Shown: positions 11,938 through 58,056 of the stretch, piece after piece
How positions within the stretch are numbered: position 1 is the first letter of the stretch
Layout of the letters: each line of letters begins with the position of its first letter
DNA from: Lingula anatina
Taxonomy: Eukaryota; Animalia; Brachiopoda
DNA length: 64,000 nt
Direction: 5' to 3'
Assembly: GCA_051362555.1 (NCBI GenBank)
Contig: CM120641.1
Coordinates: 48,056,401-48,120,400, forward strand
Made by a program: the position numbers and the translations under genes
The notes under the pieces: model-generated
Database searches by the model: none
Told to the model about the DNA's origin: nothing
What the model saw: the letters and a program-made list of their open reading frames with translations, nothing else

Positions 11938-11985
<48 letters not shown>

Positions 11986-24206: not shown

Positions 24207-24239
<33 letters not shown>

Positions 24240-25111: not shown

Positions 25112-28100
25112 ATGGCATCAAATATTGACACCAGTAAGTATTTTTAGTGCTGAATATCGATCGTTAATTCTTTGAAGAAGTTGTTTTTATTGAGGCATGC
25201 CGACATATTGGAGTGTCACTACGATGTACATACATTTTTATAACTTAGTTAACATGCCTTGTAGAGGCTAGATTCAGGGGCGGATTTAGGCCGTCTTCTG
25301 GGTCTTCCAGAAGACGGTCAGATTTTCAAGTTTACCTTGACGGGTATCTAATTTTTTATCTGTCGGAAGACGGTCAAAATGGAGGATGGATCAACAAAGA
25401 TAACTTGGAAGACTGTCAGAAAATAGCTCTGTATCCGCCCCTGATATTTGTAGCGATACAAAGACGTCCGCGACCTTGCACATCGTTGCCAGAGATAGGC
25501 CCTATTTGTCTACTTGAACTGTTTTTTAATAGATTTGTCTTGAATTCAGTCAATTTTACTTAATGTCTCACAGAAATTGACGTTAATTGCAATTACATGC
25601 TGTAAAAAATCTTGACAAGTGTTATAAAACCACTGAAACGTTTCGCCCATCCTATACGTATTGCAACTTAGTGGTTAGTGCACGTGCTTGGGATATCGCC
25701 TATAACATGTCGGCTTCTGTATATCTAACAGCACCGCACTTGCTTGTCCATTATTATTTCTGGCCACTCTCTCTGCCATATCTCGCAAAAAAGGCGTGAC
25801 TTGGTTTAACGCTTACTCACGACACTCAAAAGCCTCTTGGACTTGGTCGATTCCCATACTGGTTGATTAATACCGTCATTGATACATTTTTCATAGCATA
25901 TTATGGTGCAATTGATAGACCTACTAAATGTACCTAATGTGATTATTATGCAACGTCGTTGATCTAATGTTTTTTGTTTGTCTTATCCCTCCCATCACCC
26001 TTACACTAGGACTGCATTCAAACGTATTTAGATCGATCCATCTAGATCGACCTAACTCCCTAGGGGTTCACGCTAAATTGCTGTCAGCTCAAGACGCTTC
26101 TAAAAATGTCTGTCACGCCTACAGAAGCAGCTAGGGTAAAGATAATTACCCCCTTACCGCTTTACTAGGCGTGACAGACATTTAAGCCGGTCAAGTTGAT
26201 AGCAATTTAGTGAGACTCCCTAGGGGAATAGATCGATCTAAATATCTGTGGGAATGGTAACTAAAACACAACCAATTAGCACATACGAAGAAGTTCTGCA
26301 TGTGTAATACTGCCAGCTGCAGTCATGGGTTATAACCTGTTTTAATCATGCTTTTAAAAATGACGGCACAGATATCTTGGGCCTACTGCATTACCACTTT
26401 CTCTCTCATCATGGGGGACCATAAAAGTTCTGTCTAATAATTTAACCTCTTATCACCTTCAAACATTTGACTTACGCATATTGCTCAAGTCTCCAGTGTC
26501 GTATTTTTTTTAGAATTAGAATTATCCTATTAGAATTGTTCCTTGTGGATGTGCAGGACTCACTGCTATGATGGATGTTTGTTTACAGATAGGTTTTGTA
26601 GATTCCGTTTCGCTGCTCTTCTGTTGCTCGTGCCCTTTTAGCCCTTAGATTTTATCTGTCATCTATTTTCTTTTTAATTTTAAATTGAACCAATAGTTCG
26701 CATTCATTTCTTCTTATCATTTATGATTTTATTCAATTTGAGCTTTGAAGCTTGCATTCATTAGGGCTATACACATGTAACTGTCAAACAAATGATGCCA
26801 ATTGTCAGTGTTATTTTCTTAATTGCGTCTTTAGGAAACCGCATTCTGATAGTACTGGTAGCAGTGTGTGCAATCGTTGCCGTAATAGCTATAGTTATAG
26901 CTGTAGTGGCAGTATCGAGATCCTCGACCACTCCAAACATCACCATCCAAGGTGACCAATCGACAACAGGTGGCGGCACCTCTGGACAAGGATCGTCTGC
27001 TGGAAGCTCAAGCTCAGCAGTCTCATCATCTGGAGGACGGATCTTTACGATTGCCATAGGGCATGACTGGGGCGCTCACGAATATATGTAGGTAGATTTT
27101 TCTGTAGAAAAAAGTTATCTCTGCCGATAAAGTTCATTGGCATATCTAAAGTCATTTCTTATGAGAAAGACATTTTAATCAACACACTGTGGTTTCTATA
27201 AAATTAGCAATCAAAGACTTAATTTTCACGTGCTAACATTCCTATCCATAACACATTGCTGTATTGTTCCTATTTCAGAGACACCTCTGGCTACTTGGCA
27301 GGCTTTCATTTTGATTTAATCGACGCAGGTAAATCGACATTTCATTTTCATCAATATGTTAAGTAATAATTGCATTTCAAATAATTTGATCACTGTTTGC
27401 TCCATCCCCATCTGATGCTCTGCCACTCATTAAAATAATTTGTCAAATGTCGCTTGTTGACATATACTACAACATGCAAGTTGATGTGTTAAGCCAAAAT
27501 GGTAATCTTCCGAAATAGTCTCAAGTCTCGCAACTAAACATAAAATCAAGCGAGATTTCTAGGGATTTGGAGGAGAACAGTCACAAACAATGGCAGACTA
27601 GCTTGTATAGGGAAACAAAGAAAAGATAACGGAATTTATCCACGGATAATTTCACTTAAGTTTTTGTTGTCTTTTGCACAACAGTCCCTGTGTGTACAGA
27701 GTATTCACATTTGTATTATGTAGGACTAGAAAGAAGACATTACCGGCGCACAGAATTTCACCCTTTTGTAAAAAGCTGAGCCCCAGCTCACGCGGGTTTT
27801 GTACATTTTCTAATCTTGTGTATCGTCATCCATTACTGACAGCCTCGGTTTAGACAGGCAGGCAATTAAAAAAAATATTGTAGGTAACATAGGTAACATA
27901 CTGGGTCGACATAGGCCTATTAGTGCATTTTATCAGATAGGGTCTACATATTATAAAATCGTGTCTTTTTAATTTTGGAATACTGATATCTTTTAGTTTG
28001 CACCGAGGCTGGCATGGACTGTCGTACTGTATGGGACAAGTACGTCAATTGTTGGGACTCCACCCCAGGACAACCCTCACACGGCGGCCAGGGTACGTGA

Positions 28101-30514
28101 CGTGTGTATGTGTGTGTGTGTGTATGTGTGTGTGTGTGTCAGCAAAAGATAAAGACAACAACTTCGTCACATAAATATCACTTATTGCAATGAAAAATAC
28201 AAATTTATCCCCATTTTTTTTTTTTTCAAAAATGAATGTTTTTTGTCTTGAAGAAAAATTACCTTTTAGTTGTTTGGGAATCGACATTGCCCATGTAAGT
28301 TCTGTCTGACTACGTATATTCATGTTCTCAAAATATTTCTGAAGCATAGGGTATGCGTTGGGGCAGCAGTTTGTTTTCTATCATTTATATCAACAATATT
28401 GGGGAATATAATTTAACCTTAACCCTAAATAGACAAATATGACAAGCGCTTGGGGCACTTGGTATTCAATATGTGTTCCAGTATATTATTCAATCTTTGT
28501 TCATTGCGCAAAAGAGGCTGCGAAATTCGAAGTAATATTACTGATAATTTTTTTTTACAACCAAAACATTTCAGGTTTGATGGGTCGTTGGTATGATGCT
28601 TGCACCGGCTGGTTTCCAACCATAGGTAGGGTTCAGGTGTTCAGCTTTTCTTCACCATTCCTCAAACCCCCAACCAGCTATTTTTTTACGAAGACTGGGA
28701 ACGCTGCTTCGTTTTCATCCAGAAATGTAGCTAACAAGAAAATCGGTAAGACACATACAGTATTATGTCGATAAGCATTACTATACTGTATTGAGAAAAA
28801 AGATGTTGACGATATTTTAAGTGTTTCAACAATAAAACGTCGACAGCTCACAGTGTTATGTTCTTCAAGTTACAGTCTGTTTCTGTAATAACTGTCAGTT
28901 ATACTTTCTCCAAACTACAAAGGGGCAAGTTGGACCCCCATCAAGTCTCTTTAATAAAGTTACTTTTAAAAGATGCTAAATTATTTCATTTGGACTCACT
29001 GCCGACGTTTTCTTAGCACCGTTGGATACGGTCACTTCACAAATTGATGTGATCAATTCTTTTACCCCATAGTTACTTAGTCATAAAAAAAAAATGGGGG
29101 GCCAACTTACCCCGGGGTCCAACTAGCCCCGGTCCCCCCTACTGTATTCACTCAGAAGATTCATATAGAGACTGCTAAATCACCCGTAGCCGTCCCTTAT
29201 GAAGTTGTCTTGTTAGTCTTGTTTAGTTTTTCTTTAAATAAATCCGTGTATCATATAGATTACCTGTATCAATGTATTACCATTGTATTGTCATTCAGGT
29301 AGGTAATAGAAATAGTAATATAAAATAGAAAATTAATCTATTTGATTATTCAAGGTTTCATTGATGGTTGGGCTAGTGACGAGAAATGTCTGGCCAGATG
29401 GATTGACGTCACGGGTCAGGACAATATGACCATCGTCCACGTTAATAACCCTGCAGATATCGTTGCCAAGTTGAAAAGTGGAGAAGTAAGATATATAGCG
29501 TATTCCATTCCGATCTTGAAATGTAGAAAGTGTTCAGTGCTCTTGAGACATTGCAGATAAAACGGAATTTGACTTCGTCATATATTACAGGAGAATTGAC
29601 ATATTTAAATTCATACAGTATGCCTACGATGAGGAGAATGCTACACAATCATGTTTGGTGGAAACTAAGAAACCGTTCCCAGAGCCTATCTATCTCCACG
29701 GGGATTCTCGCTCAATTTTAGATGCCTGTCACGTCTACTGAAGCAGCTAGGGGAAAGTTATTTATCGTTTAGCAGCTTTAGCAGGCGTTCCAGACATCTA
29801 AGCCGCTTAAACTGAAAGCATTTTAGCGTGAAACCCCTTAGACCCCTCTGTTAAATCGATTTAGGTATGGGATCCTAGTCTTAATCTACTCTTTTTTTTC
29901 ACAAATAGATAGAAGCGGCCTTCGTGTCTGCCTTAGACATGGCAGACTATGTATCCGAGGTTGAACAAGTCCCCGGGGCTGGGTTTTCTTGCATGTTGTC
30001 CGGCATTGGGATGATGACTAGGAAAGACAACGACTTCAACTCAAAATGGAACGCGGGATTCAACAAACTGGTCTCCAGCGGCAAGTTTAAGAAATTATGT
30101 GATGCTGCCGCTACAAAACACGGTGAGTCACATGAAAACAGCTCTAAAAGCATGATTCTTCAAACTCGGGATAACAGCTTAGATGTTGACATTGGATAGC
30201 TTTTCTAATTAAAATGTGAAAAACGACGACCACAGATGTTAGATGTTACATATAGTTTTCTAATGATAAACATGATTAAAATCCAGTCGGCAATAAGTAG
30301 TCTCACATAAAAATTGAACAGAAGAAAATCCTCACTGAACGGAACACACTCGAAAACAGGCGAAATGAAATTGAAATTGAAATGTCATTTCATACAACGT
30401 TATTTCGTCGCAATACTGTATGTTGGGCGAAGGTTATCACTTTTATAGTTTTACCTGTAAGTTATAAAACTTTTTGTAGGTTCTCGTGGTTCCGTGACCT
30501 GCGTCGATGGCTAG
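25112..30514 (+). CDS. Membrane-anchored family-3 solute-binding-protein-like protein, copy 1 (~323 aa)
   Basis: Exons 25112-25133, 26835-27087, 27279-27328, 27997-28092, 28575-28745, 29355-29485, 29909-30122, 30480-30514 (972 nt, open). N-terminal hydrophobic anchor ILIVLVAVCAIVAVIAIVIAVVAV, S/G/T stalk, then PBP2-like EYIDTSGYLAGFHFDLIDAVCTEAGMDC ... TIGRVQVFSFSSPF ... KKIG ... LKSGEIEAAF ... GMMTRKD ... WNAGFNKLVSSGKF. Confidence 0.85.
25275..25443. mobile_element. CAGGGG-terminated MITE (hAT-like termini, ~5-bp TSD)
   Basis: TIR CAGGGGCGGAT / ATCCGCCCCTG; flanks AGATT and ATATT; absent at the paralogous site in units 2 and 3. Confidence 0.8.
26010..26261. mobile_element. PIF/Harbinger-like MITE (relatives at about 29669-29880 and 31645-31858)
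   Basis: Palindromic TTTAGATCGAT...CCCTAGGGG...GCTAAATTGCT / AGCAATTTAG...CCCTAGGGG...ATCGATCTAAA. The paralogous site in unit 3 (about 47078) is empty and reads ACAC-TAA-AACAC, implying a 3-bp TWA target. Confidence 0.7.
28917..29145. mobile_element. Tc1/pogo-type MITE remnant
   Basis: GGGGCAAGTTGGACCCC near the left end is inverted with GGGGTCCAACTAGCCCC near the right end, which finishes CTG-TA. Confidence 0.5.
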
Positions 30515-31549
30515 AAATACCATGAAGATATCACCAAGAGCGGGAAAGAGACTGGAAAAGATAGATTACAGAAAGAAAAATACTAACTGACAATTAAGAC
30601 CCATCAGAAAGTTCAGTTCCTATTGTTTTTTGTTTTGTTTTTTTTTTTTTGCTGAAGACGGCCGTGGAATTTTCGGACAGTGTACAAAGATTTCCACATA
30701 AGAGAGAAAAAAAGAACAAAACACAACTCAGATATACAAAACCCATAACTCTTTGTCGTGATCTTTGACTAACATATAAAGATGGGATTCTTTGAGCATG
30801 GTACAATTTTAACCTGCTTTTAATATCCATCAAAATGCAAAAATAAAGTCCGTTGGTGTAAAACCGAATGTTTCTCGGTCACCATACTATTCGAACAGAG
30901 AAACCCTAAGACAAATACAATTGAAAGGATCTACATGTACCTGTTCTCACCTGACACAACATCAATCCTCTCTGGAGTCTTAGGATTGTCGACTTGTGAA
31001 TATTTCTAAAATTTCTAACTTATAACAAAGTACTAATTCAACAAAAATGTGAACATTTTTTATCATATTGGCGTAATTTTGATTTGTTCCATGATTTCCA
31101 CTGTTTTTTTTCACCATAGTACCCTCCAATATGGAAAGAAATAATCGGCAATTTATAAGTGATACAGTAGCTATGCAAATTGCATAAAATGTTTGTGTCG
31201 CTGGCGTGATTTTATTGTCTATTTCTTGTTAAATGACAAGAACTCATTTTCATTATGTCACAATATCTGTATTGAAGGGACGTTTGTCCTCATATAGAAC
31301 TAAGATATTTTCCAACAACAAAATATTTCAAAATATTTTTATTCAATTTTAGGAGAAGACTGCAAGCCTTATAGGCTGTTTTGTATGTATTCTGGAGAAC
31401 AATTTTCTTTCTTCTATTATTTTGTATTAAATGCTCAAAACTGTCTTATTAAAACAAACAACGCTTGTGAAAAATAAACATAACAATTATAACATGTTTC
31501 TTTTTATTAATTTCTATTAATCACTAATAGTGTTCTTTTCGGCTTGCAG

Positions 31550-31912
31550 TTTCGGACCACAGGTAAATGGCGGCTGAGGATACTCTGCCTCGTGGTGGAT
31601 ATCACGCTGAGACGGAACTATCACCAGCTGTGTAGGTAGCCTTACACCCCATTTCCAAAGATTAGATCGACCTACTTTAGATCGACCTAACTACCTGGGG
31701 GTTCACGCTAAATAGCTGTCAGCCGGGCGGACACATAAGTTAATTACCCCCTTACAGCTTGTAGTAGGCGGGACGGACATTTAAGTCGGATCATCTGAAA
31801 GTAATCTAGTGAGACTCCCCACGGGATAGATCGATCTAAAATCTATGGGAATAGAGCCTTAAACAGTTAACCATTACTTTATCTAATAGCAAATAAAATT
31901 CATTCATTGGCA
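31550..31912 (-). pseudogene. Inverted duplicate fragment of POLA2 intron 13/exon 14
   Basis: Reverse complement matches 21690-21836 (LPTQLVIVPSQRDIHHEAEYPQPPFTCGP), split by the MITE at 31645-31858. Confidence 0.9.
31645..31858. mobile_element. PIF/Harbinger-like MITE inserted in the inverted POLA2 fragment
   Basis: Homologous to 26010-26261; TTA on both sides; interrupts the match to 21690-21836. Confidence 0.75.
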
Positions 31913-32055
31913 CTGTACGTCTAGAAAGACTACATGATTGTGCTTTGGGCTGGACTGTTTGTCCTGATATTGCAGTGGGGAGTATGGCTGGAAAAGTCCA
32001 ATATCAGAGTGGCAGTCCCTAGCACAATGTGGACAATTAAAGTCCGACTCTGCTT
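31913..32055 (-). mobile_element. 5'-truncated 3' end of an RTE-clade LINE
   Basis: Minus translation FNCPHCARDCHSDIGL(F)-SH resembles the C-terminal CxxCxRxCxSxIGLxSH zinc finger of RTE ORFs, followed by a short 3' UTR ending TGCCAATGAATGAAT. Confidence 0.65.
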
Positions 32056-32833
32056 GGCAGTGTATCCTCAGCCGCCATTTACCAAATGACACCGTTTGCC
32101 CTCTAAAAATACCAAATTTTTAGGGCCCTTCAGCGGGCCCCGAGCCCCAAGCCAAGGTTTTGCATCAGAGACCTGTCATTCCTAAAAAGAAATGGACCCC
32201 CTTCCAATAATCTTGGATCCGCCCCTGCAGGGTGCGCGAGTTAGACCACGTTGCACCATGCCTCCCTACGCCCTTCACGCTTCAGTACTAAAAAAGGTAC
32301 ATAGCTGGAACTTTTTGCCGCGCAGCGACGCTGTTGTTTTCACCGAACGCCTCCCACCGTATGGCGTCTACTTGCAAAACCATTGCTGGGATATCGACGT
32401 CTAAAGTTGTAAAATGGTGGCAACTGCACGGATTTGACACCTCTTCTACACTGTCGAAAAGTTAATGAATCATTGTGCACAGTGGCATAGCACGGGCATT
32501 CACTGCAATCGAAATAAGCAGGACCAAAGATGGGCCTCTCCTCTTTCATTATATATCTCTCACTATATGCATGCAGAGTAAATAAATATTTCTTTTTTCT
32601 ATTATCATTATGCATCATATTCACAAACCTAAAGCACTTGGTGAAACGAATATTGCTTGTAAAAAGTAAGCTTTACAATTTCCATATTTTTTGTTTTTAT
32701 TATTACGCTTGTTCTATTTTAAAACAATTTAAACAAACCTAATTTGTACCTGCTCAAACATTGTATTTTTACGAGAAGAGGTGATGTAGCAAATAAATGG
32801 AACCGCTCACTCGACTGAAGCCTAGTAGGGAAA

Positions 32834-35800
32834 ATGGCATCAAACATTCACCAGTAAGTATTTTAGTTCTGAATATCGATCGTTAATTCTCTGAAGAAGA
32901 TGATATTATGAGTGTCACTACGATGTACATAAATTTTATACTCTATGATGACATGCCTTGTAGATATTATATTTGTAACGATACAAAGACGTGCTCGACC
33001 TTGCACTTAGAGATATTTGTCTGCTTGAACTGTGCTTTGAAATAGTCTTTAACTTCTAAAACTGTCTTGATATCAGTCAATTTTACTTAATTTATCACAG
33101 AAGATGTTGTTAATTGCAATTGCTTGGTGTAAAAATATTTGACAAAAGCTATAAAACCACTGAAACGTTTCGCCCATTCCATACCTATTACAACTTCGTG
33201 GTAAGCGCACGTGCTTGGGATATCACGTAAAATATGTTGGGTTCTATATATTGTACGCAACCACACTTGCTAGTCTACTAGTAGAGTCGTCACTCCTATA
33301 GGCCCAATAGTCGAACCTTGCAATGTTCTTTCCTGCAAACCTTTTTTGCTGAAAAGCATTTTTCAGGCCGAGAAAGGCAAAATTAGCTTGGCTGCTACTT
33401 CCGAGACATTGAGCATTTTTCAATATGGCCGTCAATTTATGAGGAAAAATAGGAAAACGACCAAAAGTAGCCTATGGCTAACAAAATATCATAATGAACA
33501 AAAATAATTAAGGGAGATATGATTTTGATAATACTAAATACGCAAAAAAAAAACGAACTAATTTTGCCGCTTTTTTACATTCTGCCATATGTTTTGACCG
33601 CCATTCTGGCTTTTTTGCCGAAAGTTACACACTTAAGTGTATTCACTAGTCCTGCTGTGCTCTTCTGATAGGGTAAACGTTCAAAAAAGCTCTTAATAAG
33701 TAAGCTTTACAATTTCCATGTCGTTTTTCTATTTCTTCTCATAAATTGACGGCCATATTGCATTTCAGCAAAAAAAAAAGTTTACAGAAGAAAACATTGC
33801 AGGGTTAGCGTTCTGGCTATTCGACTATTATTTCTGACCATTCTCTCTTCTATATCTCGCAAAATTTCGCTTAGTTGAACGCTAAAGGTCTCTTGGTTGA
33901 TTTCCATTACCGTCATTGATGCACAACTGCTTGTATCCTTTTTGTTTATATTACCCTTCAATTTGCTTGCTGCTTGTTTTACGTTGTCTGGCTCATTTCA
34001 TTCCTAGTCTTCTTTAACGTGCTAAGTTTCTTAAAATATATTCAAACATTTGCATGTATAAATCAACATTAGCATGTATAAATTAACTCCACCTGGCCTG
34101 GAAGGACTGCGTCGTGCACCCTTCCCTAGAGCTCATCTCCACTAATGATGGTTTTGAATTATTAAAGATGCATATGAAGTCAATTTTTGCCACAAAAACG
34201 GACCAAATGCCAGCATATAGTTTCAAATAGTATCACCAGGAGAATTACCAAAAGACATTGTTTGATATTACCCGAAAAATATTTGAAATGATTTGCCACG
34301 CCTACTTATGGTACTTGGAGACGCTTAGCTACCGACAAGTCCCCATATATATTTGCAATGTTTTCCTGTGCTAATTTATTATTCCATATATTCAATTTGT
34401 GAAACATTTATACATAATTATCTAACCCATCTTCCTCTGTTTCTTTCCAATTTCACTTCAGTTTTACTCGTAGCGTGATTCTTGCATACCAATACTAAAA
34501 CATCTTAGTCTCTAGTCCCCCCCTTTTTTGTCTCTAGTAAATACCTTGGACATTGAGGGAAGTAATAACCTTAGCACAAATGTCTTATTTGCACCGCGTC
34601 CTTCATTAAATACCTTTTTACCGACCTCGCACCAACCCTTTACTACATCGCGCCTAATAGAATATACTAAATCACCTTTGTATTCTGTTTGTGGAATGCT
34701 GGTACCTGGTTTAGGACACGTATATAATACATCACCGCAACAGGTCCACGCAAAGGAGAGAGAGAGAGATTTTGCGCGTAGGTATACACGGGCGCATCTT
34801 CATGCCCTTCAAATTTGGCTTGAAAACATCTGCTTTGTAGACCAACTTAGCCTTCCATTTGAGTAAAACTGAAATTGGGTCTAAAATTGTTATTTTTGCG
34901 AGTTATTGTGAATATATATCTCCACGTCCACGATTCTGTATAACAACATTGGGACACAGGCATCAAAATTTCAACTTGGCGCCGATCTTGTGAGTACGTT
35001 TTCTGCTTAGATAATGCATCCTATTTTGCTTTATATTCATGAAGTTTGTAAATGTAACCTTAAACAGATATAGAATCATCAGGGAAAAATACACTTAATT
35101 TCACATAGTTGGGAAAGCACGATGCGATCCTGAATCAACAGTTGAGCAGCGATGACATGAAATCATTTTTCGTGAATTACACATTAAAGTGAGTGCTGGA
35201 TATAGCTTATTTAATTAGTCTCATTTAATATTCATGTGACCGGGTCATTACGTCAACAATGGAAATCTCTACCCTCTACCAGGGCGACAGATTGATTTTT
35301 CACAGATATTCACAGATATGTCTCTAGATAAATAGACATAGTCATTTTGTTGTGATCATTTTGGCAAAAAAAAAAAATGTCCACAATAATAACTGCGGTC
35401 CTGGCAGAGGGTAGGAAATCTCCACTACTAACGCCGCAGTCCGTGGGCCGAATCTGCATGGGGTAACGAAACTACACTGTAGCTGTGGTTTCGCTATCGT
35501 ACGCGTCTGAAGGAAACGAAACAGCATCGGTTCATTACATCTGTCCACGTTCAGATGACAGGATTTATTTACACATTGTTCTTTTATGAAAAGCAGAATG
35601 TATTTCAGGCGTTTAAATCCCGAAATTGAACGATTTGTATAGTTCACGTGTATGGGAGATAATACGTTGTACTGAAGTTGAAAACAATGGTAATACACAA
35701 AAGCACGTTTTATTCACCCATCCAAATGCGACGAAGAGCAATTTTGTTTTTTTTTTTTTTTCTCTCTCTACTGTGTGAACCGTAAATGAACAAAAAATAC

Positions 35801-37741
35801 TGTGTGAACAAAAAATTGACATACTATTCTGAGAGCTGCAAAACAGACTGGTATCTGTATCCCAGATTTAAGCCCTATTTTAGTGTCATTTTCGGCTAAG
35901 AATTAAAAGATTTAAAACACACAACAATGTTTGGAAACAGAATTGATTGTTGTAATAAGACAAATGCATCCCCTTTCACATGAAAGCACCTACATTGTAA
36001 TTCAACATATACCAATATTTTGACAGACTTTCAAATATGATAACCTAACCCATTGCTGTTACCCAGTATCGTGAAAGTGCATATATACAGACTTGACATT
36101 TAATATGGAATATTTTTTTCGAAACAATATTTTATCAGTTTTTTCCTATTTTGCTAACTGATAAATAAAAATAAGGATTAAAATCGCGTTTTAATAACTT
36201 TAAATTACCTCTTTGATGTCATTGTGACATCAGTTCATTAATGGAATTCGCCAGAGAAGCAAACAAAAACACGTTGCCTATTCTATGTCATACGACTCCT
36301 ATTAAAAGAGATATTTTAGATCTCCATATTTTCCAAATTATCGTCTGTAAAAGGGTAATACCTTCCACAAAAGACCCTCATGTCAGTTGCTAGTCACAGT
36401 AATGGTCGTTGTTACGCCTGGCCTCTTCGTGGCTGTTGCCAGCGCTCTCAAGCGGCAAGGCATTTCTTGGGGGTAGGGTTTAAGAGTTCAATCTGGAATA
36501 ACATTCCAGGCATCGGTCTAAAATTGTCCAATCTGGTCCAGTTTTGTTGTAGGACATGTAGGCAGTTGATTGGTGAGTAATGGTCTACCGAAATATTGTC
36601 TATGTGGTTCAAATGTGGCGATTTTGATGACCAGGGTAGCTGCTCATTCCCTTGGTTCTGTAAGTTATCTGCTATTAAAAGTGCTCTGTGTGAACCTGCA
36701 ACCTCATCGTGCAACCTAGAATTGTTCCTAAGGTGCCCCCTATCAAATGATAGTCAAGTGGTTCCGAGATTATTCCTTTATTTGATCTGGTTCAGGTTTT
36801 CGTGGATGACTACCGTTGGTGTTTTGGCACCAATGTGGAATCTACTCCAAATACTGACGCTGTCAATCATCCTTGTCACTTTAGACCCGGCATATGCTTT
36901 GTCGTAGGCCTCTTCTGGATATCTGTAAACTCTGTTTTGACTAATTGGGCGGTACAGGTGAAATCTGACCTCAATAAAGAAAGCCACGCAGTTTCAGTGT
37001 TCTACCCAGAATCGTTCATGGCCCCCAATTCATTAGAGAAACAGACGACGATGTTTTGCTGTATACAGTGGGTACCTCGGAGGTCATTTTGTGTTCTTAC
37101 CTGCTAAAACCAGTTTAGTGTTCGCTAAGGGCTTTGAAAAATGCATTTTAGTGGCAATTTACCCCTCGTTCTGAACAGACTAAGTGATTTTGTTGAGTTG
37201 CAGCAGCGTATACCGAAAGACAGTGGGTCCTGTACCCTGTAGGTAAAATTTTGAACATTGGGGGTCACCTCTGTGTAGGTACATCAGTCTGGGCATTACT
37301 CTATAAAACTGTGGGGACCGTTCCGTTTGGCGCTATGATCTGTCTGGTTATGTCTGTCTTTTTCGCGCCATTCTGCCTTAGATTAACAAATTTGTAATGC
37401 ACTACTTGGCTCATTTTACGCACTGCAAAACTGACCGCTTGCATGCAACATTTCAAATTCTTCTATGCAGTAGTTGCCGAAATATGGATATTTTTTGACA
37501 GAACCAAGCTTTGCCTAAGCCAAGCTTTGATCAGCCCAAAGGAACACTACCCAATTAAATCACTGCAAATTACATAATGTAGCAGCGCAACAGGCATGAA
37601 AGTCAGTTAATTGGTAGTGACACACCTGACTGCACACTTTTACATTCACAAATCTTATATGAGATCGGAGTTTTTGAAAAAAGAACGTATTTTTACCTAG
37701 GTATACCTTCGAAACTGAAATATTCCATATTAAATGTCAAG

Positions 37742-37800
<59 letters not shown>

Positions 37801-45844: not shown

Positions 45845-46410
45845 CAGGGTTCGCGAGGTAGACCACGTTGCGCCATGCCTCCCTACGCCCTTCACGCTTC
45901 AGTACTAAATTTTGCCGCTCAGCGACGCTGTTGTTATCACCGAACGCCTCCCACCGTATGGCGTCTACTTGCAGAGAACGATGTTCGGAAATCGTCGTCT
46001 AAAGCTGTGAGATGGTGGCAGTTACGTGGATTTGACACATCTTCGACAATGTCCGTTTGTGCACGGTGGCATAGCACGGGCATTCACTGCAATCGAGATA
46101 AACAGGACCAAAGCTGGGCCTCTTCTCTTTCACTATATAAATGCACTTCTCACTATATAAATGCAGAGTAAATATATATTTTTTTATTATCATCATATTC
46201 ACAAACCAAAAGCACTTGGTGAAACGAATATCACTTGTAAAAAGCAAGCTTTACAATTTCCATATTTTTTGTCTCTATTTCTCTGCTTGTTGTATTTAAA
46301 ACAATTAAAACAAACATAATTTGTACCTGCTCAAACATTGTACTTTTACGAGAAGAGGTGGAGTACCAAATAAACGTAACCGCACACTCGAGCGAAGCAT
46401 AGTGTGGAAA

Positions 46411-49400
46411 ATGGCATTAAACATTCACACCAGTAAGTATTTTTAGTTCTGAATCTCGATAGTTAATTCTCTGAAGAAGGTGATTTTAGTCGACTTATTG
46501 GAGTGTCACTACGATGTACATACATTTTTATAACTTAGTTAACATGTCTTGTAGAGATTATATTTGCAACGATACATAGACGTGCTCGACCTTGCACTTC
46601 GCTGCCAGAGATAGGCCCTGTTTGTCTACTTGAACTGTGTTTTTAAATAGATTTGTATCAATTCAGTCAATTTTGCTTAATTTATAACAGATATTGTTTT
46701 CAATTACAATTGCTAGGTGTAAGAATTTTTCACAAAAGTTATAAAACCACTGAAACGTTTCTCCCATTCTATACGTATTTCAACTTTGTGCTTGGGATAT
46801 CACCTAAAATATGTCGGCTACTATATATTTTACAGCACAGCACAGCACCGCTTGTCCATTATTATTTCTGGCCATTCTCTCTTCTGTATCTCGCTTGGTT
46901 CAACGCTAACTCACGACACTCAAAAGTCGTTCGGTTGATTCCCATCACCGTCATTGATACATTTTTCAAAGCATATGGTGCAACTGAAAGGCCTATTAAA
47001 TGCACCTAATGTCATGATTAAGCAATGTCCTTGATCTAATGTTGTTTTTGTTTGTCTTATCCCTCCCATAACCCCAACACTAAAACACAACCGACAGCAC
47101 ATACTAAGATGTTTTTTTTTGTGTTCTGGTTGCGTAGTAATGTCAGCAGATGTCATGAATTATAACCAGTTTTAATCATGCTTAAATGACAGCACCGCAG
47201 CAGGTGGGGAGAGATGAGGAATGTGCATGTTTGGGTGCCCGCGCGTGCGTGTGCGTGTATGTGTTTGTGTGTGTGCGCGCAAATGTTTGCATCCTTTTTG
47301 TTTTTATTACCTTTCCATTTGCTTGCTGCTTGTTTTACGTTGTCTGGCTCATTTTACTTCTAGCCTTCTTAAACGTGCTCTGTTTCTTAAAATACATTTA
47401 CTTATTTTTTATCCAAAGCGTACGTGAAGGCAGGGACTAAAGAGTTTTTGTCTCTTCTGTATGAAGCGTTAAGTTTATGATGCCATTTTTGTGTTTCTTA
47501 AAAGGTACTCTTATATACTCTGTAGAGATAGGTTTTGTAGATTCCGTTTCACTGCTCTTCTGTTGCTTGTGCCTTTCCATTATATTATAACCCCTAGATT
47601 TAATCTGCCATCCACTTTTTTTTTAAATCTTGAACCAAAAACTAAGTAGACTTACAGCTGTTTTTTTTTTAGAAGCACGTTATTATGTTTATACTTCGCA
47701 TTCAGTTCTTATTACCATTAAAATTTTATTAAATTTGAATTTTGAGGTTTGCATCTATTATAACTGTCAACCAAATGATACTAATCATCAATGTTATTTT
47801 CTTAATTCGTCCTTCAGGAAACCGCATTTTGATAGTACTGGTAGCAGTGTGTGCAATCGTCGCCGTGATAGCTATAGTTATAGCTGTAGTGGCAGTGTCG
47901 AGATCCTCGACCACTCCAAACATCACCATCCAAGGCGACCAAACGACAATAGGTGGCAGCACCTCTGGACAAGGATCGTCTGTTTGGAGTTCTGCTGGGA
48001 TCTCGGGCTCATCATCAAGAGGACGAATCTTCACGATCGCCACAGGACATGACTGGGGCGCTCACGAATATATGTAGGTAGATTTTTCTGTATTAAAGCA
48101 CCGGTAAATTTTAAAAATTAACTCTGCTGATGCAAATCAGATAGTGAATAGATATGCTTATGCTGTAGGCCCCTATCCCCCAAAACCAATTTTGATTCTC
48201 AATATTTATATCATTCAATGTTGTGGCGACTCTGATAAATATTTCTGTTATTCACACAAATTATTTTTTCAGTGTTCTTAAAAAAAATCAAATTCATTTA
48301 ATGTACAGGACTGACATTTCAGTCATTAAAAATACATGTATTTATTAGAATGGTACAGAGTTAATCAAAACCACGAAATCACTTAATTTAGAACAACATT
48401 GTTCGGGGGCATATTCTACATACAGGGTAAGTAAGAATATTGTACACCGATATATTAAAAGTGAATTTTATTAAGATTTTTCAAAAGTTAAACTTTAGAA
48501 ACTAGAAAAGCGCTTGGAGACTGCAGACCTCTGCCAACGCAATTCAATTCTCATTCTCATTAATTATTAATTATTTATCCATTTATCAAAGGATTGACTA
48601 AATTCTCATTATTGATTTATTAACTGATTGGATAGTTTATGGCTCTTGAAATTTTCATGAAAATCTTTCCAAAACTTTTCGGGTGATATTTCTAACAGAT
48701 AAACATACGTTATGAATTACCTAACTAATTAATCGATAAATGGATCACCACTTCCTTTCCAGATTGTGAAATATTCATCACAACTTTTTCCATAATATTG
48801 CTAACAGACAGAGAGACAGACAGACAGACAGACAGATATAGACTCAAAAATTATAAACTTTACCTACGTCTTGACGTACAGGTACAAGTACAGTATGTTC
48901 CATTAAGTTTTCAGTTACTGCTTATTTCATTTTGAGGAATTTATTTTCATGAACATAATGTTGCTTCTCTTAAATCAGCAATAGAGACTAGGATGGTCAA
49001 ATATTATCACCTATGAAACATGTGCTTAAATGCGTAATCACATATACTTGTGATGTTTTAATTTTCAGAGACACCTCTGGCTACTTGGCAGGCTTCCATT
49101 ATGATTTAATCGACGCGGGTAAATCGACATTTCATTGCTAATGGTTATCGCAATTTTTTAGAAATGTACTCGCCTTAAAGCCCAGTCTAACTGTATCACT
49201 AGTCTCACTTTGCAATACCACTATTTAGCTTAATTTGTTCGTTGACAAATTATCCAAGTTGATATATGTTAGGTTAGGTCTAAATTGCAAGCACACAATC
49301 TTAATGTGGCCTAGCTTGAATTTGACCTTTGACTGACTGCACTCTGAAATTTCCCAGAACTTATATCTCCTAAACTAGCAGGGATATAAGCATAGGAAAT

Positions 49401-52400
49401 TATTTATGTTTCCTTTGACCTACTTATTTTCATTATATGCACTTTGCATATTTGCCCGCCCCCAAATTTTCCACAATCAAGACAGATACAACCATAGCTA
49501 TCATTTTTAAACATTTCACAGTGTGTACCGAGGCCGGCATGGACTGCCGCACTGTATGGGACAAGTACAGTAACTGTTGGGACTCCACCCCGGGACAACC
49601 CTCACACGGCGGCCAGGGTACGTGGGTTTTTTCGTGATTTCTCGTTGACAGTGCCATTTTGTTTTTTTTTTCTCAAATTCTTCAAAGCAAACGTCTTACC
49701 CTCTCAGAAAGCTATGAAAGCGACAAGAGATATTGTTCAACAGTACTTTATCAAAAGTTGGCCTTGAACGAAACCTTTGGTCTAATTTGACAAAACTTAA
49801 TTTAGAGAAACTTCGCCAACTAAACAATATTTCCCTGTTTTACAAAAAAAAAAAACAGATTTTGCTAATATTCATACTTTTGCCTTAATTCGGTGAATAG
49901 CATGAATTTATTCTAATCCAAAATATTATGAAAATTTTAGTTTAAACAAGATAACCTTTGTTGATATTTGAGAATCAAAATTACCTATGTAAATATTGCC
50001 TACCAACATGATTGTAGAGGTTGCCTTCAATCACATTTCAGGATTGATGGGCCGGTGGTACGATGCTTGCACCGGCTGGTATATAACTATAGACAGGATT
50101 CAGGTGTTCAGTTTCTCATCGACATTCACCAAACCCCCGAATAGCTATTTGTATGTCAGGACGGGCAACGCTGCTTCGTTTCCTTCCAGAAATTTAGCAA
50201 ACAAGAAAGTCGGTAAACCATTCTTATTGGTGTGACAAAGCTATAGGCTTGTCTTCGTCATGTTACGCGAGGTAGCAAATACAACTCAGATATTATCTTT
50301 CTTATTATTTATTGAACTACTGTCCAGTTATTACCCGCGCCGCTTCCTTCATTTCTATTCCTACCTCATGCAATCTGTAGCGGCCTTCTCTTTGTTTACA
50401 CTAAGCGCAGTTGTATAAATACCATAAGAGCATGTCAATCAACTTAAGTTACTCTACTAAACACTCCCCGCTCTTATTCACTGCATGCTGTCACTTACTA
50501 ACATTACATTATCTCCCGGGGACGATATGCCTGTCCCCAGGCATATTTAAAATTAAAAATTCACATTAAAATAAATTTGAACACTCCATTTGTCTTTTAC
50601 CATAAATCCATGCAAAACAAAACTAAGTAAATAGATATTTTATAAGAAACTTATGATAAAATAGAAATACGTTGGACATGAAACCCAAAATATAACTCAA
50701 AGGAAGATAGATTGACAACTCTTCAGAAAATATGGTTGTTCGTGGATGTGCATTTACATGTTGTCATGTGTGGCCCAAGAGTACAGATACTTTTAATTGT
50801 TTTCTCTGCGCAGATGTTTAAATCTGTTACTCTCTTATTATGGCTCTGACACATTATCTACGGTTTCTCTCTTTTTCTTGGTTGTCATTTTAGATTTAGT
50901 AGGAATGCACCAAGTGAGACAATCGGGCGGTACCTTCCCTGTCTAATGAGCAGCATTCACCACAACGGTGCGACCAGCGCATCGTTCATGATGAAGTACC
51001 TGTTCATCTTCATATTTGTCCACACTGTAGCGCTCTCTTTTGGTGGCTATAAGAGAAACAATCGTTTTATATCAAACCCAATCCACGATTGAACAATAAC
51101 ATACCGAAAAATAATTAAGTAAGAATCTTCCTTATGGATATCATCAGTTTCACGTCATCATCTTTATAAAAGTTAAGTACACTGTTCCTATACCAATAAC
51201 TGTATAGTTAAATATCAATAACTAATAATTATAAGACCGACAAACTGAACAAAGATGTATTATTAATACTAAAATTTAATATTTAATATTTAATATTCAA
51301 CACACAATACTTAATGTGTCGTTATAACCACATGCAATAACATATAACTCAAAGTTAACTCGTAAAAATTTAAAGTTCATATCCACTCAAATGAAAAGTT
51401 CCATTTGGTATAGTCCGTTGCATCCTCCATTTTGAATTTTAGCACGAAAGTTCAGTTAGCACATAGTGTAAAATCAGTCCTTCTAGACAGTGCATAGCGA
51501 TTGTCATCTGCCACTCATTGTATATGGATAAACGTCTTATTCGCGCACGTTGGCATACGTGTAGATAAATGTTCACAGTTTCCTGTGTATCCACGAATGT
51601 CCATGTCCAGCGTTTACGAATATATCCAAAATGAATGAAGCAGAAATGCATGTCAAGAAAAACTTAACTACGTATATTATAACAATCATCATCAAACTTG
51701 AATACAGTCACATTTAACAGGCAAGATTTTAACTTGCCATAGTATTATCCATCCAAAATATTATGATAACAATAAAACATATATGGAACCATGCTAATAA
51801 TACGATAATTTTTCCAACAATAATACTTATGCTAATAATAAAAATAATAATAACGCAATCTGGCGTCCCAGATGCTAATATTTATCTGGCGTCCCAGATT
51901 TTAGTATTTATATGACGTCATGCGCACACTTTTATACCTCAACTCCACATATTCAGTTATCCATAACCACATTGAAATATGTCACATATGAATCATTTTA
52001 TTCCTCACAATATATCAAATAATATTCACATAAGGTCATTTATCCTTGCAACATTTATACTCATTAACTCATTTGTTCCACTCGATCTTTTGATTGCCAA
52101 TATAACCACATTATCAACTGACAAGATCATTTTAAAAAGATCGTCGAAATGCCAGTGATTAGGACTTTAATTAAGGCAATTTGTCGAGAAAGTTCAAACT
52201 ATTCTCCAATTTTAATCTTCGCAACCCGAAAACATAATTCTATTGAAGGGACTTCCAATAAGGTAGATTAATCATAATCTTAATGTTTGCTTGTCACCTC
52301 CAAAGGTGCATGTGCACTTTCGACGATGTTTGACATTGCAAGGGGGTAGTGGGCGAAACAGAAGGGGTATTCTTATGAAAAGAATTATGATTCATCATCT

Positions 52401-55400
52401 GAAATTACGCAGACTGTAAGTCCAGGAGCCCTAAACCAAAACAAAGTGCAATAATAATTAGTATTGCCTGAAATTAAGGTGAATGCCATTTAAGTGTTAT
52501 ATCCTGTAAAAGAAAATTTAAAAAGGCGAACAACGAAAAATTCATTCGCTGCCTGGCTAACCTGGAAAAATAAACTATTTTATCAATATTGATTAGTGCA
52601 ACATTTTTGTTCAAGTCAACAACACAATATTTCCAAATGCAGTTTTCCGTCTTGTCACGAATTTTCAACAGTGAAGTGAGATATCTTAGCTGTTGGCATC
52701 TCTTCAAACATTCCGCAACCTGTAAAATTCTTAAGGTCAATAGATGCATAAAATGTAGACGGAAATGAATTTACTTAATAAACATAAGACGTATCAAAAG
52801 ATGGATAATGTTTACATTTATCTAAATTAGCAGGTATCGGAAAATATAAGACATACAAAATATATTCACCAAACAAATTTTATAACGAGTCTACAACCAA
52901 TTCAAATTATTTCTTTAATCAATACTCACACTTACTTACGTGAATCTTTTACGGATTCCGAGGGAAAATGAGGGACAACCATATCGCCGTTGAACTCCTA
53001 ATAGTATTGTCCTAGAAAAGACTTAGCGTACATGTTTAAAAAACAAACGTCAATGGCATTGACATTGAAGAGCATCTTTTCATATTTTCCATAAAAAGTT
53101 TAATGACATCACTTTAAGATAGTCTCTTTATAAATATCTTAATTCTATCCAATTAGAATTCAACTTCGTCACGTTTGCTACTCCCATCTTGCTGTTAGTT
53201 TTAAACAGGCGTGTTCTATTACATTGACACGCAACTTAATATATTTTCTTCTTTTCCTTTACTCTTATATTATTCCCTTTAATGTCGCCTCGTTTAGTTT
53301 TTAATTGGATCCCTAATATTCCAACCAAAAGGGAATCCATTTCCACTAAATAAGAGACTGTGCTTCAACTTTTATCTGACGCGACCTCGTAAGGCTTCTA
53401 CTTTAAATAATTCATCAGTGGTCTGGGACAAATTCGCTTGTCCTGCAGTCTCATTTTCTCGTTTTTCTTCATTTTTCTATTTTTTTCCTTACTCTCTTTG
53501 TTTATGGGCAAAGTTAGCAACGAAGCCCTGGAGTTATTTTGAAGGAACTTTCCTTGTCAAACATTCAACACAAGAACGAACATAATGACATCTGTAAATG
53601 ACCTTTTCTAAAAAGTACACCGTGTGCGTAATGGTAACTACGTGTTTTGAATAACCTTATGACCGATTGCATTATCGTTGTGTAAACTAGACAAAACTTT
53701 GTACTCTAACTTGTCTGAAAAACAAGTTGCAAAGAACCTCCTGGGTGGGGTGATTTTCTGCCATCAATTATCACGTTATCTCCTATCTCTATCAACAAGA
53801 AGCCAAGCGCCTCTGCAACTAAGTAGAAGTTCGTCTGATGTCAAGTGTGTGATAATTGACGCAAGGTTCTTATCTTTACGTTGGACTTTTTAAAACAATT
53901 CCTCTTTAAAACAAATGCCTCGCAATCTTGACATTTTGACAACGTCATATTTTTGTCACCTTTCTCTAAATGTTAAAAGCATTCCAGACCTTTAAATTCG
54001 TTGCCACTCTGTTTTAAATTAACGTAAAGTACTTGTGCCGAGATAGTGTCTAACATATGTATTCTGTTCAAACATGCATCATTAAAAAAACTGTGCAGGG
54101 TCATTATATTTTCTAAGTCTTATTCTTCAACGTTTCCCTCGTGGTAAGGGCGGCGGCTAATCGCGTCTGCATTCGCGAGGTGTTTGCCTTTACTCTGCTT
54201 AATTGACATCTGTTAGGGGATAAATTCAATAATCAATAATTCATTACTTCTAGAAATTCGATTACATTCAAATGGGCATGGAATTCTGGCACTGCCTTAC
54301 ACTTAATCAACGCGAAACTACATGTATGTACCCTTAATACCTGACCTCTTCTCGCGCAATGAAACTATTCAGATAATGCTAAGTTTGCATTTCTCAGCCC
54401 TCGTATAACTATGTTTACCTCACTAAGGCAATGTTTGAAATTGTGGCTGTCTACCATAAATTCATCGAAATATCGCAAGAAGCATTTTCCAAAATAACCG
54501 TTTAAAGCAATTGTCTTACCTTCCATTTTATGTTTGTCCAATTCCAATCTCCCATCTAGATACTTTGTGTTCGCCTACGTATTTTCGTCCGGTTATCGTT
54601 CTCTCTCTTTTCGACAAGACTCATGATGTCAAACATCTATGTTTATATTTTGCATCCTCCACCATTTTGTGACGAAGCTATAGGCTTGTCTTCGTCATGT
54701 TACGCGAGGTAGCAAATACAACTCAGATATTATCTTTCTTATTATTTATTGAACTACTGTCCAGTTATTACCCGCGCCGCTTCCTTCATTTCTATTCCTA
54801 CCTCATGCAATCTGTAGCGGCCTTCTCTTTGTTTACACTAAGCGCAGTTGTATAAATACCATAAGAGCATGTCAATCAACTTAAGTTACTCTACTAAACA
54901 CTCCCCGCTCTTATTCACTGCATGCTGTCACTTACTAACATTACATTGGCAATGGCTTACTATATATGTGTGATAATGATAACTGAATAAAACAGAAACT
55001 TAGACGGAAAAAATTGTGTCCATGATATTGTCAGTTTCTCATAAAAGGATTCCATTTGCAAGGAGTGTTAATCATAATGGTTTTTTCCAAACAACAGAAA
55101 CTATACTCAGTATATTCAGGCAGTTGTTTTTGGTCTTGTTAGTTTCCCACCAAGAATTCCATCAGTACTTAGTGTTATACAGAATGGTTACCTCACGCAG
55201 CTAAACTCGCTTAATTCAGGATGATGCTTCTAATGCACCTGTTCTATTATTTCCTGTTATAAGAAACTGACTTACAGGAATGGTTGTTTGAAGAAACAAT
55301 TATTGCAGCTTGGCTAGATTTATCTTTGAATACGTCCTTGTAGCAGAGTCAATGTCATACAGATAGTGTACATGTATAACGTACGTCACCCATTAAGGTG

Positions 55401-58056
55401 CGCATCATGCTAAAACACTGAATGGACTTGAATTACACGCAGTGGACAATAGAAGTGTCACCCCTACTGAACCAATACTATGGGGGAGATACATGACTGT
55501 GGAATGATATGCTCCTGGTATCATTTTATTAACATCAAACATCACAAAAAAAAACAGGTCCATGGTACAGCGGTTTCATACTCATTAGTCACATTATAAG
55601 TAGACCAGGGCTCCGCATCTCGAAAGGTTCGCTATATTGCGCACGTGCGCAAGTGTGCAAGTGTCTCGATTCCATAACCGATTCTATTTCGAGATACGGG
55701 GCCATGGAATCGAGACGCTTGTGCACGTGCGCAACATAGCGAACCTTTCGATATACGGAGCTCAGGCATTAAAACTACTCAAGATCTGCCTACTTTGATT
55801 ACTCCGATTCAGGGGGCGACACTTCTATTGACAATTGTGTGTAGAAGATAAATCTATAGGGGCATATGTTGGATTTTTAAAGGTTTAGGAGATGGATGGT
55901 CTAGTGACGAAAGGTGTCTAGCCAGATGGACTGACGTCAAGGGTCAGGACAGCATGACCATCGTCCACCTTCAGAACCCTGGGGATGTCGTGACCAAGTT
56001 GAAAAGTGGCGAAGTAAGATATTTAACATGTTCATTTTTGAACTTAGAATGTAGTTATGTAGATATAATTAAGGTTCAGATATTGACTTCGTGCTAGGGT
56101 AGTAGTAGTACTAGTATATTGGATACCAGTAGTATTAGAAGTATTCATTAAAACTGTAAAGTTCCATTTTAGTTTTAAAAAGTATTGTGTGTTTTTTATT
56201 TAGTCTAAACAATGAGTACATATATTATTCTTATCCTTGATATCTTAATTTTTTTATTTCTAGGTGTTTCCCGAGCGAATCAATGCCATGGGGGCTCTTT
56301 AGTGGTTATGTGGCTTATATGGGTGCATTTCAAAAATTATGGGTAGGGGTAGGAAATTAAACACAATTTGTAATTTTAAAAAATATATAGCAATATAGCA
56401 GTTGTTTATGCACTGCTGTGTAGCTGAAGGGTTGTTCTAAACATATAACTAATAAAATTTATGTAACAATAAATGTTGTAAAAGTTAAATGGGTCAAGGT
56501 CAAATGAGGTCAGTTTTGAAGAATTTTATGAATGCAAACTAATACAGTTTTTTTTAATCAGAAAAGTGAGTCGAGAATATGATTTTTGGATATTTATGAT
56601 TAAAATTATTTTTATTACAAACACATAATGGAGTTTTGACAGTTTATTTTGCAGTTAGTTTGTGATATTAATGAATGATACAATGTACAAGTACTGTACT
56701 AATAGAGGGGAGCTTAGTTTGATTGCTGAAAAATGGGGGTAGGGGAGGGGAATCATTAATAAAATAGGATCTAATTAAGATATACCATTAATTTATATAT
56801 CATTGCGCTGTAGGGGCGCTAATTTCCAAAAAAATGCCTCAAATTTGACCTCATTTTACCTTTGGCCCCATTTAACTAAAACATGTTTCACTGCCATTGT
56901 GCAGAGTAACACTTCAGCTATACAACGGTTATAGATCATTGTTATATCTTATTTGAATAACAAATTATGAATGATTTCCTTCCAGAATCCCAATTTATAA
57001 AAGCGACCATTTGAGCCACAGGGTGTTTCACGACATTAAAATGAAGCCCCACTGCGACATATTTCTCAGCATTGTCCTCACCAAAATATCAGGCCTGCTG
57101 CAAATTTGCAGCGAATTTGCAGCAACATTGCTGCAAACTGCAATTCCTTCTTGCAAATTGAGCAGCAATATTTTTTTCTTGCTAATTCCTGCAAACTCAT
57201 TACTGCAAACTTTTAGTTTTTAGTTTGCAGCAACATTGCTGCAGTATTGCTGCAAACTTTTCATTTTGATTATATACTACACCTAGAAATGAAAAATTTA
57301 GACATCAAGGGTTAGGAAAATATGTGTTCCTTTTGTTTGTCACGGGGTTGCACGTGGACCCCTTGATTCTACCAGACATATTATAAACTTTCCAATATGT
57401 ACATGTACAACACTTGTCGCATACAGATAGACGTAGCGTTTGCAAATGCCCAAGGCATGGTGGGGTATGTATCAAGAACCAACCCTGAGATTGAAAAAGT
57501 CCCCGGGAGCGGATTTTCTTGCGTTCTGGCGGGGGCCGGTATGATGACACGGAAAGACAACGATTTCATTTCAAAGTGGAACGCAGGGTTCAGCAAACTC
57601 ATCTCCAGCGGGAAGTTTAAGAAATTATGCGACGCTGCGGCCGCAAAACACGGTGAGTCATGAGCTATGTAAATATCTTAATATGAAATATTCTTTTTCA
57701 GGCTTGGTCCTCGTTACTCTTTCCTTCCTTATCAGCAATTAAAGACCAAAGGCCAGATGCACTGATCTATTGTTTCCTAAAGATAATAATCATAATTGTC
57801 AGTCGGCATTGAGTGGTCTCATATTGTCATATTTCATATTTTCTCAAATTTTGTTAAGAATGAGTATGAATATAATGAATTAAGTTATTATTGGCAAATG
57901 GCTGCTATGACATTTTAGACAGGGGAAAGCAATTAATTGCAATATTAGCAGCTTGTCAAAACACTGTACCTTGAGTGTTTATCATCATTTTATTAAATCA
58001 AAGTTATAAAATGTCTTCTAGGTTCTCGTGGTGACTTGGACTGTGTGGACAGCTAA
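46411..58056 (+). CDS. Membrane-anchored SBP3-like protein, copy 3
   Basis: Exons 46411-46432, 47818-48073, 49069-49118, 49522-49617, 50042-50212, 55883-56013, 57427-57652, 58022-58056; same exon structure and phases as copy 1, reading frame open. Confidence 0.85.
50231..54945 (-). mobile_element. Non-autonomous LTR retrotransposon (Gypsy-like/LARD) in intron 5 of SBP copy 3
   Basis: 278-bp LTRs at 50231-50508 and 54668-54945 (TGT...ACA, one mismatch seen); TTGG TSD, single at the empty site in copy 2 (about 41820). Minus-strand PBS TGGTGGAGGATGC (54652-54664) and purine tract GGGAGATAA (50509-50517). No ORF above ~91 aa inside. Confidence 0.95.
55436..55841. mobile_element. TA-targeting MITE with a nested ~155-bp palindrome (55609-55762)
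   Basis: TIR CACGCAGTGGACAATAGAAGTGTCACCCC / GGGGCGACACTTCTATTGACAATTGTGTG, TA on both sides; absent in copy 2 (about 42310). Confidence 0.8.

Follow-up and report, generated by a model that had tools for sequence, protein, structure and literature searches.

To our knowledge, the SBP_bac_3-type fold is regarded as prokaryotic outside glutamate receptors. What, then, is a brachiopod doing with it in a tandem array of spliced genes? We analyzed a 64,000-nucleotide stretch of the Lingula anatina genome (assembly GCA_051362555.1, contig CM120641.1, positions 48,056,401 to 48,120,400 of the forward strand; hereafter the window), in which three such genes occupy positions 25112-58056. An initial annotation had read them as a domesticated, possibly horizontally acquired family of cell-surface small-molecule binders, built on bacterial amino-acid-binding proteins (solute-binding protein (SBP) family 3). 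We find that the array proteins belong to PF00497 and would work like a tethered bacterial binding protein, yet lie outside both the LAO/HisJ importer proteins and the ionotropic glutamate receptors (iGluRs) as these are defined. The array forms a single branch within a broad eight-cysteine subfamily, whose named members come from brachiopod, annelid, mollusc, echinoderm, hemichordate, amphioxus, and green-algal species and from rare bacteria. As to function, we give an even chance to the reading that these proteins would capture N-substituted amino-acid derivatives at the cell surface on behalf of a distinct transporter or receptor.

Gene structure and transcription of the array

The proposal of three eight-exon paralogues, each with one hydrophobic segment and a Ser/Gly/Thr stalk, held when the genes were rebuilt from sequence. 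The copies are colinear on the + strand with identical intron phases; all introns run GT..AG, and the spliced frames are open. The features are:

23786..58827, +: three-unit tandem duplication found by self-BLAST (units ~23.8-31.5, 32.1-44.7, and 44.7-58.8 kb)
25112..30514, +: copy 1, 323 amino acids (aa), open spliced frame, GT-AG introns, joints in relatives' RNA; exons 25112-25133 (unconfirmed), 26835-27087, 27279-27328, 27997-28092, 28575-28745, 29355-29485, 29909-30122, 30480-30514 (stop)
25112..25133, +: candidate start exon of copy 1 (encoding MASNIDT), in frame, GTAAGT donor
26835..27087, +: copy 1 exon 2, with the signal-anchor helix (hydropathy KD19 3.66), an NxT sequon, the Ser/Gly/Thr stalk, and the first strand of the binding domain
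32834..32853, +: unit-2 counterpart of this ATG exon, 20 nt long (2 nt less than in the other units) and not in frame with exon 2
38710..43958, +: copy 2, 330 aa, open frame; exons 38710-38734 (MEG-type), 39022-39280, 40627-40676, 41103-41198, 41634-41804, 42339-42469, 43317-43542, 43924-43958
46411..58056, +: copy 3, 328 aa, open frame, GT-AG introns; exons 46411-46432 (unconfirmed), 47818-48073, 49069-49118, 49522-49617, 50042-50212, 55883-56013, 57427-57652, 58022-58056

Upstream blocks and introns are 75-91% alike across the three units (self-BLAST), and the copies share 251-280 identical residues pairwise. Between copies, the ratio of nonsynonymous to synonymous substitution (dN/dS) is 0.21-0.31 at dS 0.27-0.52, and the frames are therefore under purifying selection. 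Each product has one strong hydrophobic segment (residues ~11-33, KD19 3.6-3.7) followed by the stalk, and nine cysteines, one in the anchor and eight in the ectodomain. The ~24-residue segment (KD 3.6), with basic residues before it and NxT sequons and cysteines after it, predicts that all three copies are type II membrane proteins with the N-terminus inside and the C-terminus outside. Exon 25112-25133 contains the sole in-frame ATG of copy 1 ahead of the anchor and sits in an upstream block conserved across all three units; its counterpart in unit 2 is likely a 5' untranslated exon or a decayed start. The MEG-type first exon of copy 2 matches the N-terminus of the L. anatina proteins P0001 and P0005, and no MASNIDT-type N-terminus was found in the aligned L. 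anatina relatives. A very young long terminal repeat (LTR)-type insertion lies in intron 5 of copy 3 (50231..54945, +; 278-bp TG...CA repeats that differ at one base, 4-bp target duplication); it has no open reading frame (ORF) of at least 100 codons and is likely non-autonomous.

Six raw-read RNA runs carrying the same species label (X1, X2, X4, and X7-X9) were aligned to 24700-44600 and 24900-31300. Introns 2, 3, 5, 6, and 7 of copy 1 were recovered as GT..AG joints in three of the four runs aligned to 24900-31300, each crossed by ~100 to 400 reads in X7-X9, whereas the sole trace of intron 4 was a joint between two copies (41197 to 28574). In X7-X9, exon 2 of copy 1 was covered to a depth of 160-190. 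Between 339 and 409 reads per run (X7-X9) were spliced from exon 7 into the stop exon, and depth ran on into the 3' region; no channel therefore follows the binding domain. Most reads were only 90-95% alike to the window, so their source is diverged alleles or paralogues, and the gene structure that they confirm is that of the family, not of each copy; exons 5-6 of copy 2 had no read depth at 95% likeness. Exon 2 was entered from a MEGG-type exon like 38710-38734 by 498-569 reads per run, and such an exon is present in unit 2 only. The exon models thus stand for introns 2, 3, and 5-7 of copy 1, through its relatives' RNA, and the first exons of copies 1 and 3 stay unconfirmed (for copy 1, no listed joint). 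Because X7-X9 crossed these introns in numbers and X1, X2, and X4 gave almost no such reads, expression is sample-dependent. Short dispersed repeats (25275-25444, 26026-26260, 31640-31860, 35270-35303, and 39786-40140) showed very high RNA depth unrelated to the exons.

Domain identity, ligand pocket, and cysteines

Copy 1 is 97.6% identical to P0002 over 209 aa and 82% identical to full-length P0005, and exon 7 as a query returned three L. anatina proteins. PF00497 (SBP_bac_3) matched 109 of 112 aligned family members, with scores of 33.6, 48.1, and 32.3 for full-length P0001, P0003, and P0005 against a gathering cut-off of 26.4; single window exons matched no relevant Pfam family. The HisJ/ArgT-type motifs named at the outset are present. 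The AlphaFold model of P0005 (pLDDT 89) comprises an anchor helix (17-42), a disordered stalk (47-69), and a PBP2 domain, for which Foldseek placed NocT and LAO on top. VIA-align ranked a group including LAO, HisJ, ArtJ, and NocT highest (best LAO, Z 21.1, root-mean-square deviation 3.4, 227 aligned residues). Sequence and predicted structure thus bear out the family assignment. Fold alone separates bacterial SBPs from iGluR domains weakly, since the Z values are close: 19.8-21.1 for the top eight bacterial chains, 19.6 for GluR0, and 16.8-18.1 for animal iGluR domains. Profile scores separate them in favour of a bacterial-type sequence, as first proposed: all 60 shown of 142 PDB matches were bacterial SBPs or their reconstructed ancestors. 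The ESM Atlas returned only bacterial PF00497 clusters.

Neither neighbouring system describes the proteins fully. With LAO/ArgT, HisJ, ArtJ, and GlnH/GlnP (PF00497, TIGR01096) they share the two-lobed PBP2 fold and topology (Z 20-21), Arg77, the aromatic clamp Y14/F52, and the HisJ-type C-x6-C. They differ in identity (~18-25%), in lacking S72, D161, and D11, in six further cysteines and a 10-residue insert after F52, and in being encoded by spliced animal genes and carrying a predicted type II anchor; for the bacterial members of their subfamily, no ATP-binding cassette (ABC) permease was found among the neighbouring genes. Curated NCBIfam cut-offs were not reached by P0005 (TIGR01096 31.9 vs 256 bits; ArtJ 16.7 vs 510; EhuB 24.8 vs 190.9). 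The ligand-binding domains of iGluRs, ionotropic receptors (IR), GLR, and GluR0 have the same fold (Z 15.8-19.6) and the same carboxylate arginine. In iGluRs the ligand-binding region is split into S1 and S2 by pore helices, with a further transmembrane segment, whereas the Lingula domain is unsplit, has one hydrophobic segment, no pore, another cysteine set, and a spliced stop exon. Two or more strong hydrophobic peaks occurred in none of 150 relatives (crude hydropathy cut). The view that these are contiguous, channel-less, genuine animal genes is upheld by the open models and the reads spliced into the stop exon. Contamination was considered and ruled out by the introns, the spliced reads, the L. 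anatina orthologues, and an exon of a COQ8A/B (ADCK3/4) atypical kinase in the same window (273-695, +, E 1e-27).

Pocket residues were assigned by alignment to LAO/NocT numbering, not from docked coordinates, and D161 falls in a gappy region, which counts against the ligand reading built on it. As a check on the numbering, all 16 NocT residues match Table 3 of PMC5740067, and 15 of them map onto copy 1. The carboxylate arginine (LAO R77) is R159 in all three copies and is kept in 151 of 162 dereplicated family rows. The Y14 and F52 aromatics and the C-x6-C are kept as well. The positions that would hold the amino group have changed: S or T occurs at S72 in 25/162 rows, D at D161 in 19/162, and both in 3/162, as against 39/39 (R77), 28/39 (S/T72), and 24/39 (D161) in canonical control rows, which include a few duplicates. 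The three copies have F/Y/Y at S72, S/S/N at D161, G at D11, and Trp at S120. EhuB also has Phe at the S72 column, as in copy 1 (alignment), a residue that we take to stack on the ligand (no confirming paper was found). In the sections of PMC5740067 available to us, LAO Ser72 and Asp161 bind the ligand amino group, the opine binders NocT and OccJ have Ser207 and Asn202 at the Asp161 position, and Gly97Ser shrinks the site for the opine keto-acid; EhuB is described as an ectoine binder in the accessible part of PMC5924519. With R77 kept and S72, D161, and D11 lost, amino-acid binding in the HisJ/ArgT sense, assumed at first, finds no support, and database names implying arginine binding are doubtful. 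Judged from sequence, the pocket pattern recalls the opine and ectoine binders NocT, OccJ, and EhuB, family-3 SBPs that keep Arg77 without Asp161. No evident kinship of a special kind accompanies this likeness: NocT, which heads the Foldseek list, groups with canonical SBPs in our tree, EhuB scores far below its cut-off, and NocT and OccJ keep an acidic residue at D11 where the Lingula copies have Gly.

The best-kept positions of the family are Cys, Gly, and Phe, beside R159 and structural Asp residues. Pairwise co-loss of cysteines (110/117, p=2e-8; 127/150, p=3e-8; 209/269, p=2e-23; 305/320, p=3e-4) predicts four putative disulfides, 110-117, 127-150, 209-269, and 305-320; telling against this pairing, kinship inflates the p-values and 127 also co-occurs with 209 and 269. 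The six cysteines beyond the HisJ pair had been taken as an adaptation to the eukaryotic secretory pathway. In each of 15 bacterial-type domain rows, of which four derive from the bacterial loci, Cys fills all eight ectodomain columns. Because intronless bacterial members have all eight, the idea of an animal adaptation finds no support, except in the case that the bacteria acquired the gene from eukaryotes.

Relatives, descent, and genomic surroundings

At E<1e-30 the profile search recovered 117 clusters of 50% identity, a number that rose to 324 at E<1e-10. Nine of 30 clusters looked up carried species labels (Lingula, Amphiura, Saccoglossus (2), Elysia, Owenia (2), Lytechinus, and the green alga Prasinococcus), and one was an MMETSP transcript; further members came from four Branchiostoma taxa. 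In L. anatina, the family counts at least 22 LOC ids. Its forms are type II anchored, apparently secreted, or tandem multi-domain, some with TSP1 or EGF domains, and 11 of the 150 best relatives have at least two full binding domains. In six protist- or alga-type proteins (P0058, P0170, P0155, P0102, P0053, and P0137), the binding domain is repeated in tandem, up to five times or more, and some of these proteins bear TSP1, EGF, WWE, or ADP-ribosyltransferase domains or a hydrophobic C-terminal tail. Database names are automatic: 'L-arginine-binding protein-like' (Amphiura), 'ArtP-like' (Elysia), and 'uncharacterized LOC' (Lingula, Saccoglossus, Lytechinus, Branchiostoma, and Owenia).

We found no paper describing the family in the literature searched (coverage excluded subscription journals). 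The Lingula (PMC4595640) and hemichordate (PMC4729200) genome papers mention no SBP, PF00497, or solute-binding term in their main text or searched supplements, whose picture tables could hide one. The accessible portions of three related works do not describe the eight-cysteine family: PMC3251606 covers other PBP domains, on class C G-protein-coupled receptors, bioRxiv 10.1101/120998 mentions PF00497 in sponge iGluRs, and PMC6307864 is an iGluR survey.

Intronless relatives occur in two Acidobacteria metagenome-assembled genomes (MAGs), one gammaproteobacterial MAG, and one metagenome contig. They are rare: 2 of 401 genomes in the acidobacterial phylum sample had a member, centre genome included, and in the gammaproteobacterial class sample (400 scored) only the centre genome did (387 bits; 21 others ≤90 bits). 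In an initial scan of genomes with the bacterial-type alignment, none of 29 candidates was confirmed. The 23 neighbouring ORFs of loci L002-L004 and the two neighbours in L001 (two contigs are short) yielded no ABC permease or ATPase, compared with an adjoining permease in 5/5 annotated canonical SBP loci. Both named Acidobacteria loci have a sodium:solute symporter gene near the eight-cysteine gene, which in L002 (2094-3587) lies 0.9 kb downstream of it and in L004 (17-1015) 5 kb upstream; as a weak lead, the symporter is a possible non-ABC partner, or its proximity is chance. In two acidobacterial genomes (L004 6116-7798; L015), an unannotated N-terminal domain of ~290 residues is fused ahead of the binding domain, and the L004 fusion gene is followed by an integrase and an IS91-type transposase.

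A first tree held 89 rows, hand-picked from 214 family and 46 locus domains, with 28 canonical bacterial SBPs as outgroup; a quick mixture-model tree dropped 41 of the 89, and an approximately unbiased (AU) test used 36, with iGluR rows in none of them. The eight-cysteine subfamily formed one branch apart from canonical SBPs (SH-aLRT 99; mixture model 100). Named animals grouped at 96 in the first tree, but not fully under the mixture model, in which the long animal row P0150 fell outside the group. Rows from Lingula, Owenia, and Branchiostoma shared a subclade (92 and 94), which suggests that the subfamily predates the protostome-deuterostome split. Bacterial members were placed among algal, protist, and unnamed rows, and a tree joining all eukaryote-like rows was not rejected (p-AU 0.27). 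The subfamily was probably exchanged with bacteria, and either direction is compatible with these trees. Domestication within a single lineage, as first envisaged, fits poorly with a family spanning protostomes, deuterostomes, algae, and rare bacteria.

Elsewhere in the window, a multi-exon gene on the - strand (~5990-14290) has a cadherin-like beta-sandwich match (13896-14291) and Ala/Pro/Lys-rich exons. A tandem array at 9864-10372 consists of ~14 units of 36 bp that are 90-95% alike and open in several frames. Two long near-palindromic elements resembling miniature inverted-repeat transposable elements lie at 14662-15323 (94% self-complementary) and 37798-38368 (80%).

Candidate functions of the array proteins

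Under the surface-capture reading, to which we gave an even chance, the single N-terminal anchor would hold the protein at the cell surface with its domain outside, where the two-lobed, probably disulfide-stabilized domain may close on one small carboxylate-bearing ligand. That ligand would be an amino-acid derivative, either N-substituted or cyclic and resembling ectoine, betaines, or opines, and would be handed on to a separate transporter or chemoreceptor; with a cytoplasmic tail of ~10 residues and no channel, output needs a partner. Tandem duplication may then build a repertoire of specificities. The reading is favoured by pocket sites that are more variable than other sites among eight Lingula paralogues closely related to each other (2.6 vs 2.0 residues per site, p ~0.04). 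Opine dehydrogenases are present in marine invertebrates according to the accessible text of PMC4575208, and no paper tying brachiopods to opine enzymes was found in the literature searched.

Several observations weigh against this reading. Anchoring of copies 1 and 3 requires the use of their first exons (25112-25133 and 46411-46432), which are unconfirmed; the 25133-26835 joint is absent among the joints listed (15/73), depth just upstream is ~0, and P0002, the database model nearest copy 1, begins downstream of the anchor. By a crude hydropathy cut, a strong N-terminal anchor was present in just 44 of the top 150 relatives, many of whose rows are fragments; tethering is thus no trait of the whole family. 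The test of pocket variability is one-sided and its effect modest. Finally, F or Y at S72 would crowd an opine keto-acid, so that bulky opines would fit poorly and small cyclic or N-alkylated zwitterions better.

A bolder form of the surface-capture reading, which we advance tentatively, holds that the proteins have served marine invertebrates as stand-alone Venus-flytrap co-receptors for N-substituted metabolites since before the protostome-deuterostome split, acting outside the cell alongside animal transporters or chemoreceptors, and that the subfamily passed from eukaryotes to a few bacteria. If true, this would be an animal counterpart of binding-protein-dependent uptake, with an expanding repertoire for opines, betaines, and ectoine-like osmolytes.

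It is unlikely, in our judgement, that the copies are ordinary Arg/His/Gln-type polar amino-acid binders, tethered to collect dissolved free amino acids. The best sequence and structure matches (LAO, HisJ, ArtJ, STM4351, and GlnP), the retained R77, aromatics, and C-x6-C, and names such as 'ArtP-like' speak for it, and the available part of PMC5740067 states that OccJ, without D161, still binds arginine at micromolar level. Replacement of S72, D161, and D11 in all three copies, the scarcity of rows with both amino anchors, and the shortfall from the LAO cut-off count against it.

Recognition of microbial small molecules or cell-wall fragments at the surface or after secretion, in immunity or symbiosis and diversifying like lectin families, seems to us rather improbable. 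It would account for the tandem expansion, the variable pocket, the secreted, anchored, and tandem-domain forms with some TSP1 or EGF fusions, and the sample-restricted expression, but dN/dS is 0.2-0.3 overall and the predicted fold is of the closed, small-molecule type. We assign a similarly low, marginally lower, probability to ectoenzymes on a binding-protein fold that act on a small acid as cyclohexadienyl dehydratase (CDT) does. Ectoenzymes often have a type II anchor, the profile matches include CDT as well as its reconstructed ancestors, and the bacterial members lie outside ABC operons; yet the best-kept positions yield no candidate catalytic set, and the pocket is hypervariable among paralogues. 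Very improbable is a truncated iGluR that lost its channel: despite the common fold, the nearby Z values, and a weak PF10613 match in 3/112 members, the domain is unsplit, no channel family (PF00060 included) is among the families matched by the 112 members, the PDB profile matches shown are all bacterial SBPs or reconstructed ancestors, and the nearest non-animal kin are channel-less algal and bacterial eight-cysteine proteins.

The Lingula array thus opens onto a family without channels that is both large and old, reaches at least six animal phyla, and has at least 22 loci in a single species. The kept carboxylate arginine, together with the lost amino anchors, makes a direct ligand prediction for the three ectodomains. 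Identification of the ligands would inform our view of how dissolved organic compounds are absorbed or sensed by marine invertebrates, and would provide disulfide-stabilized scaffolds for biosensors.

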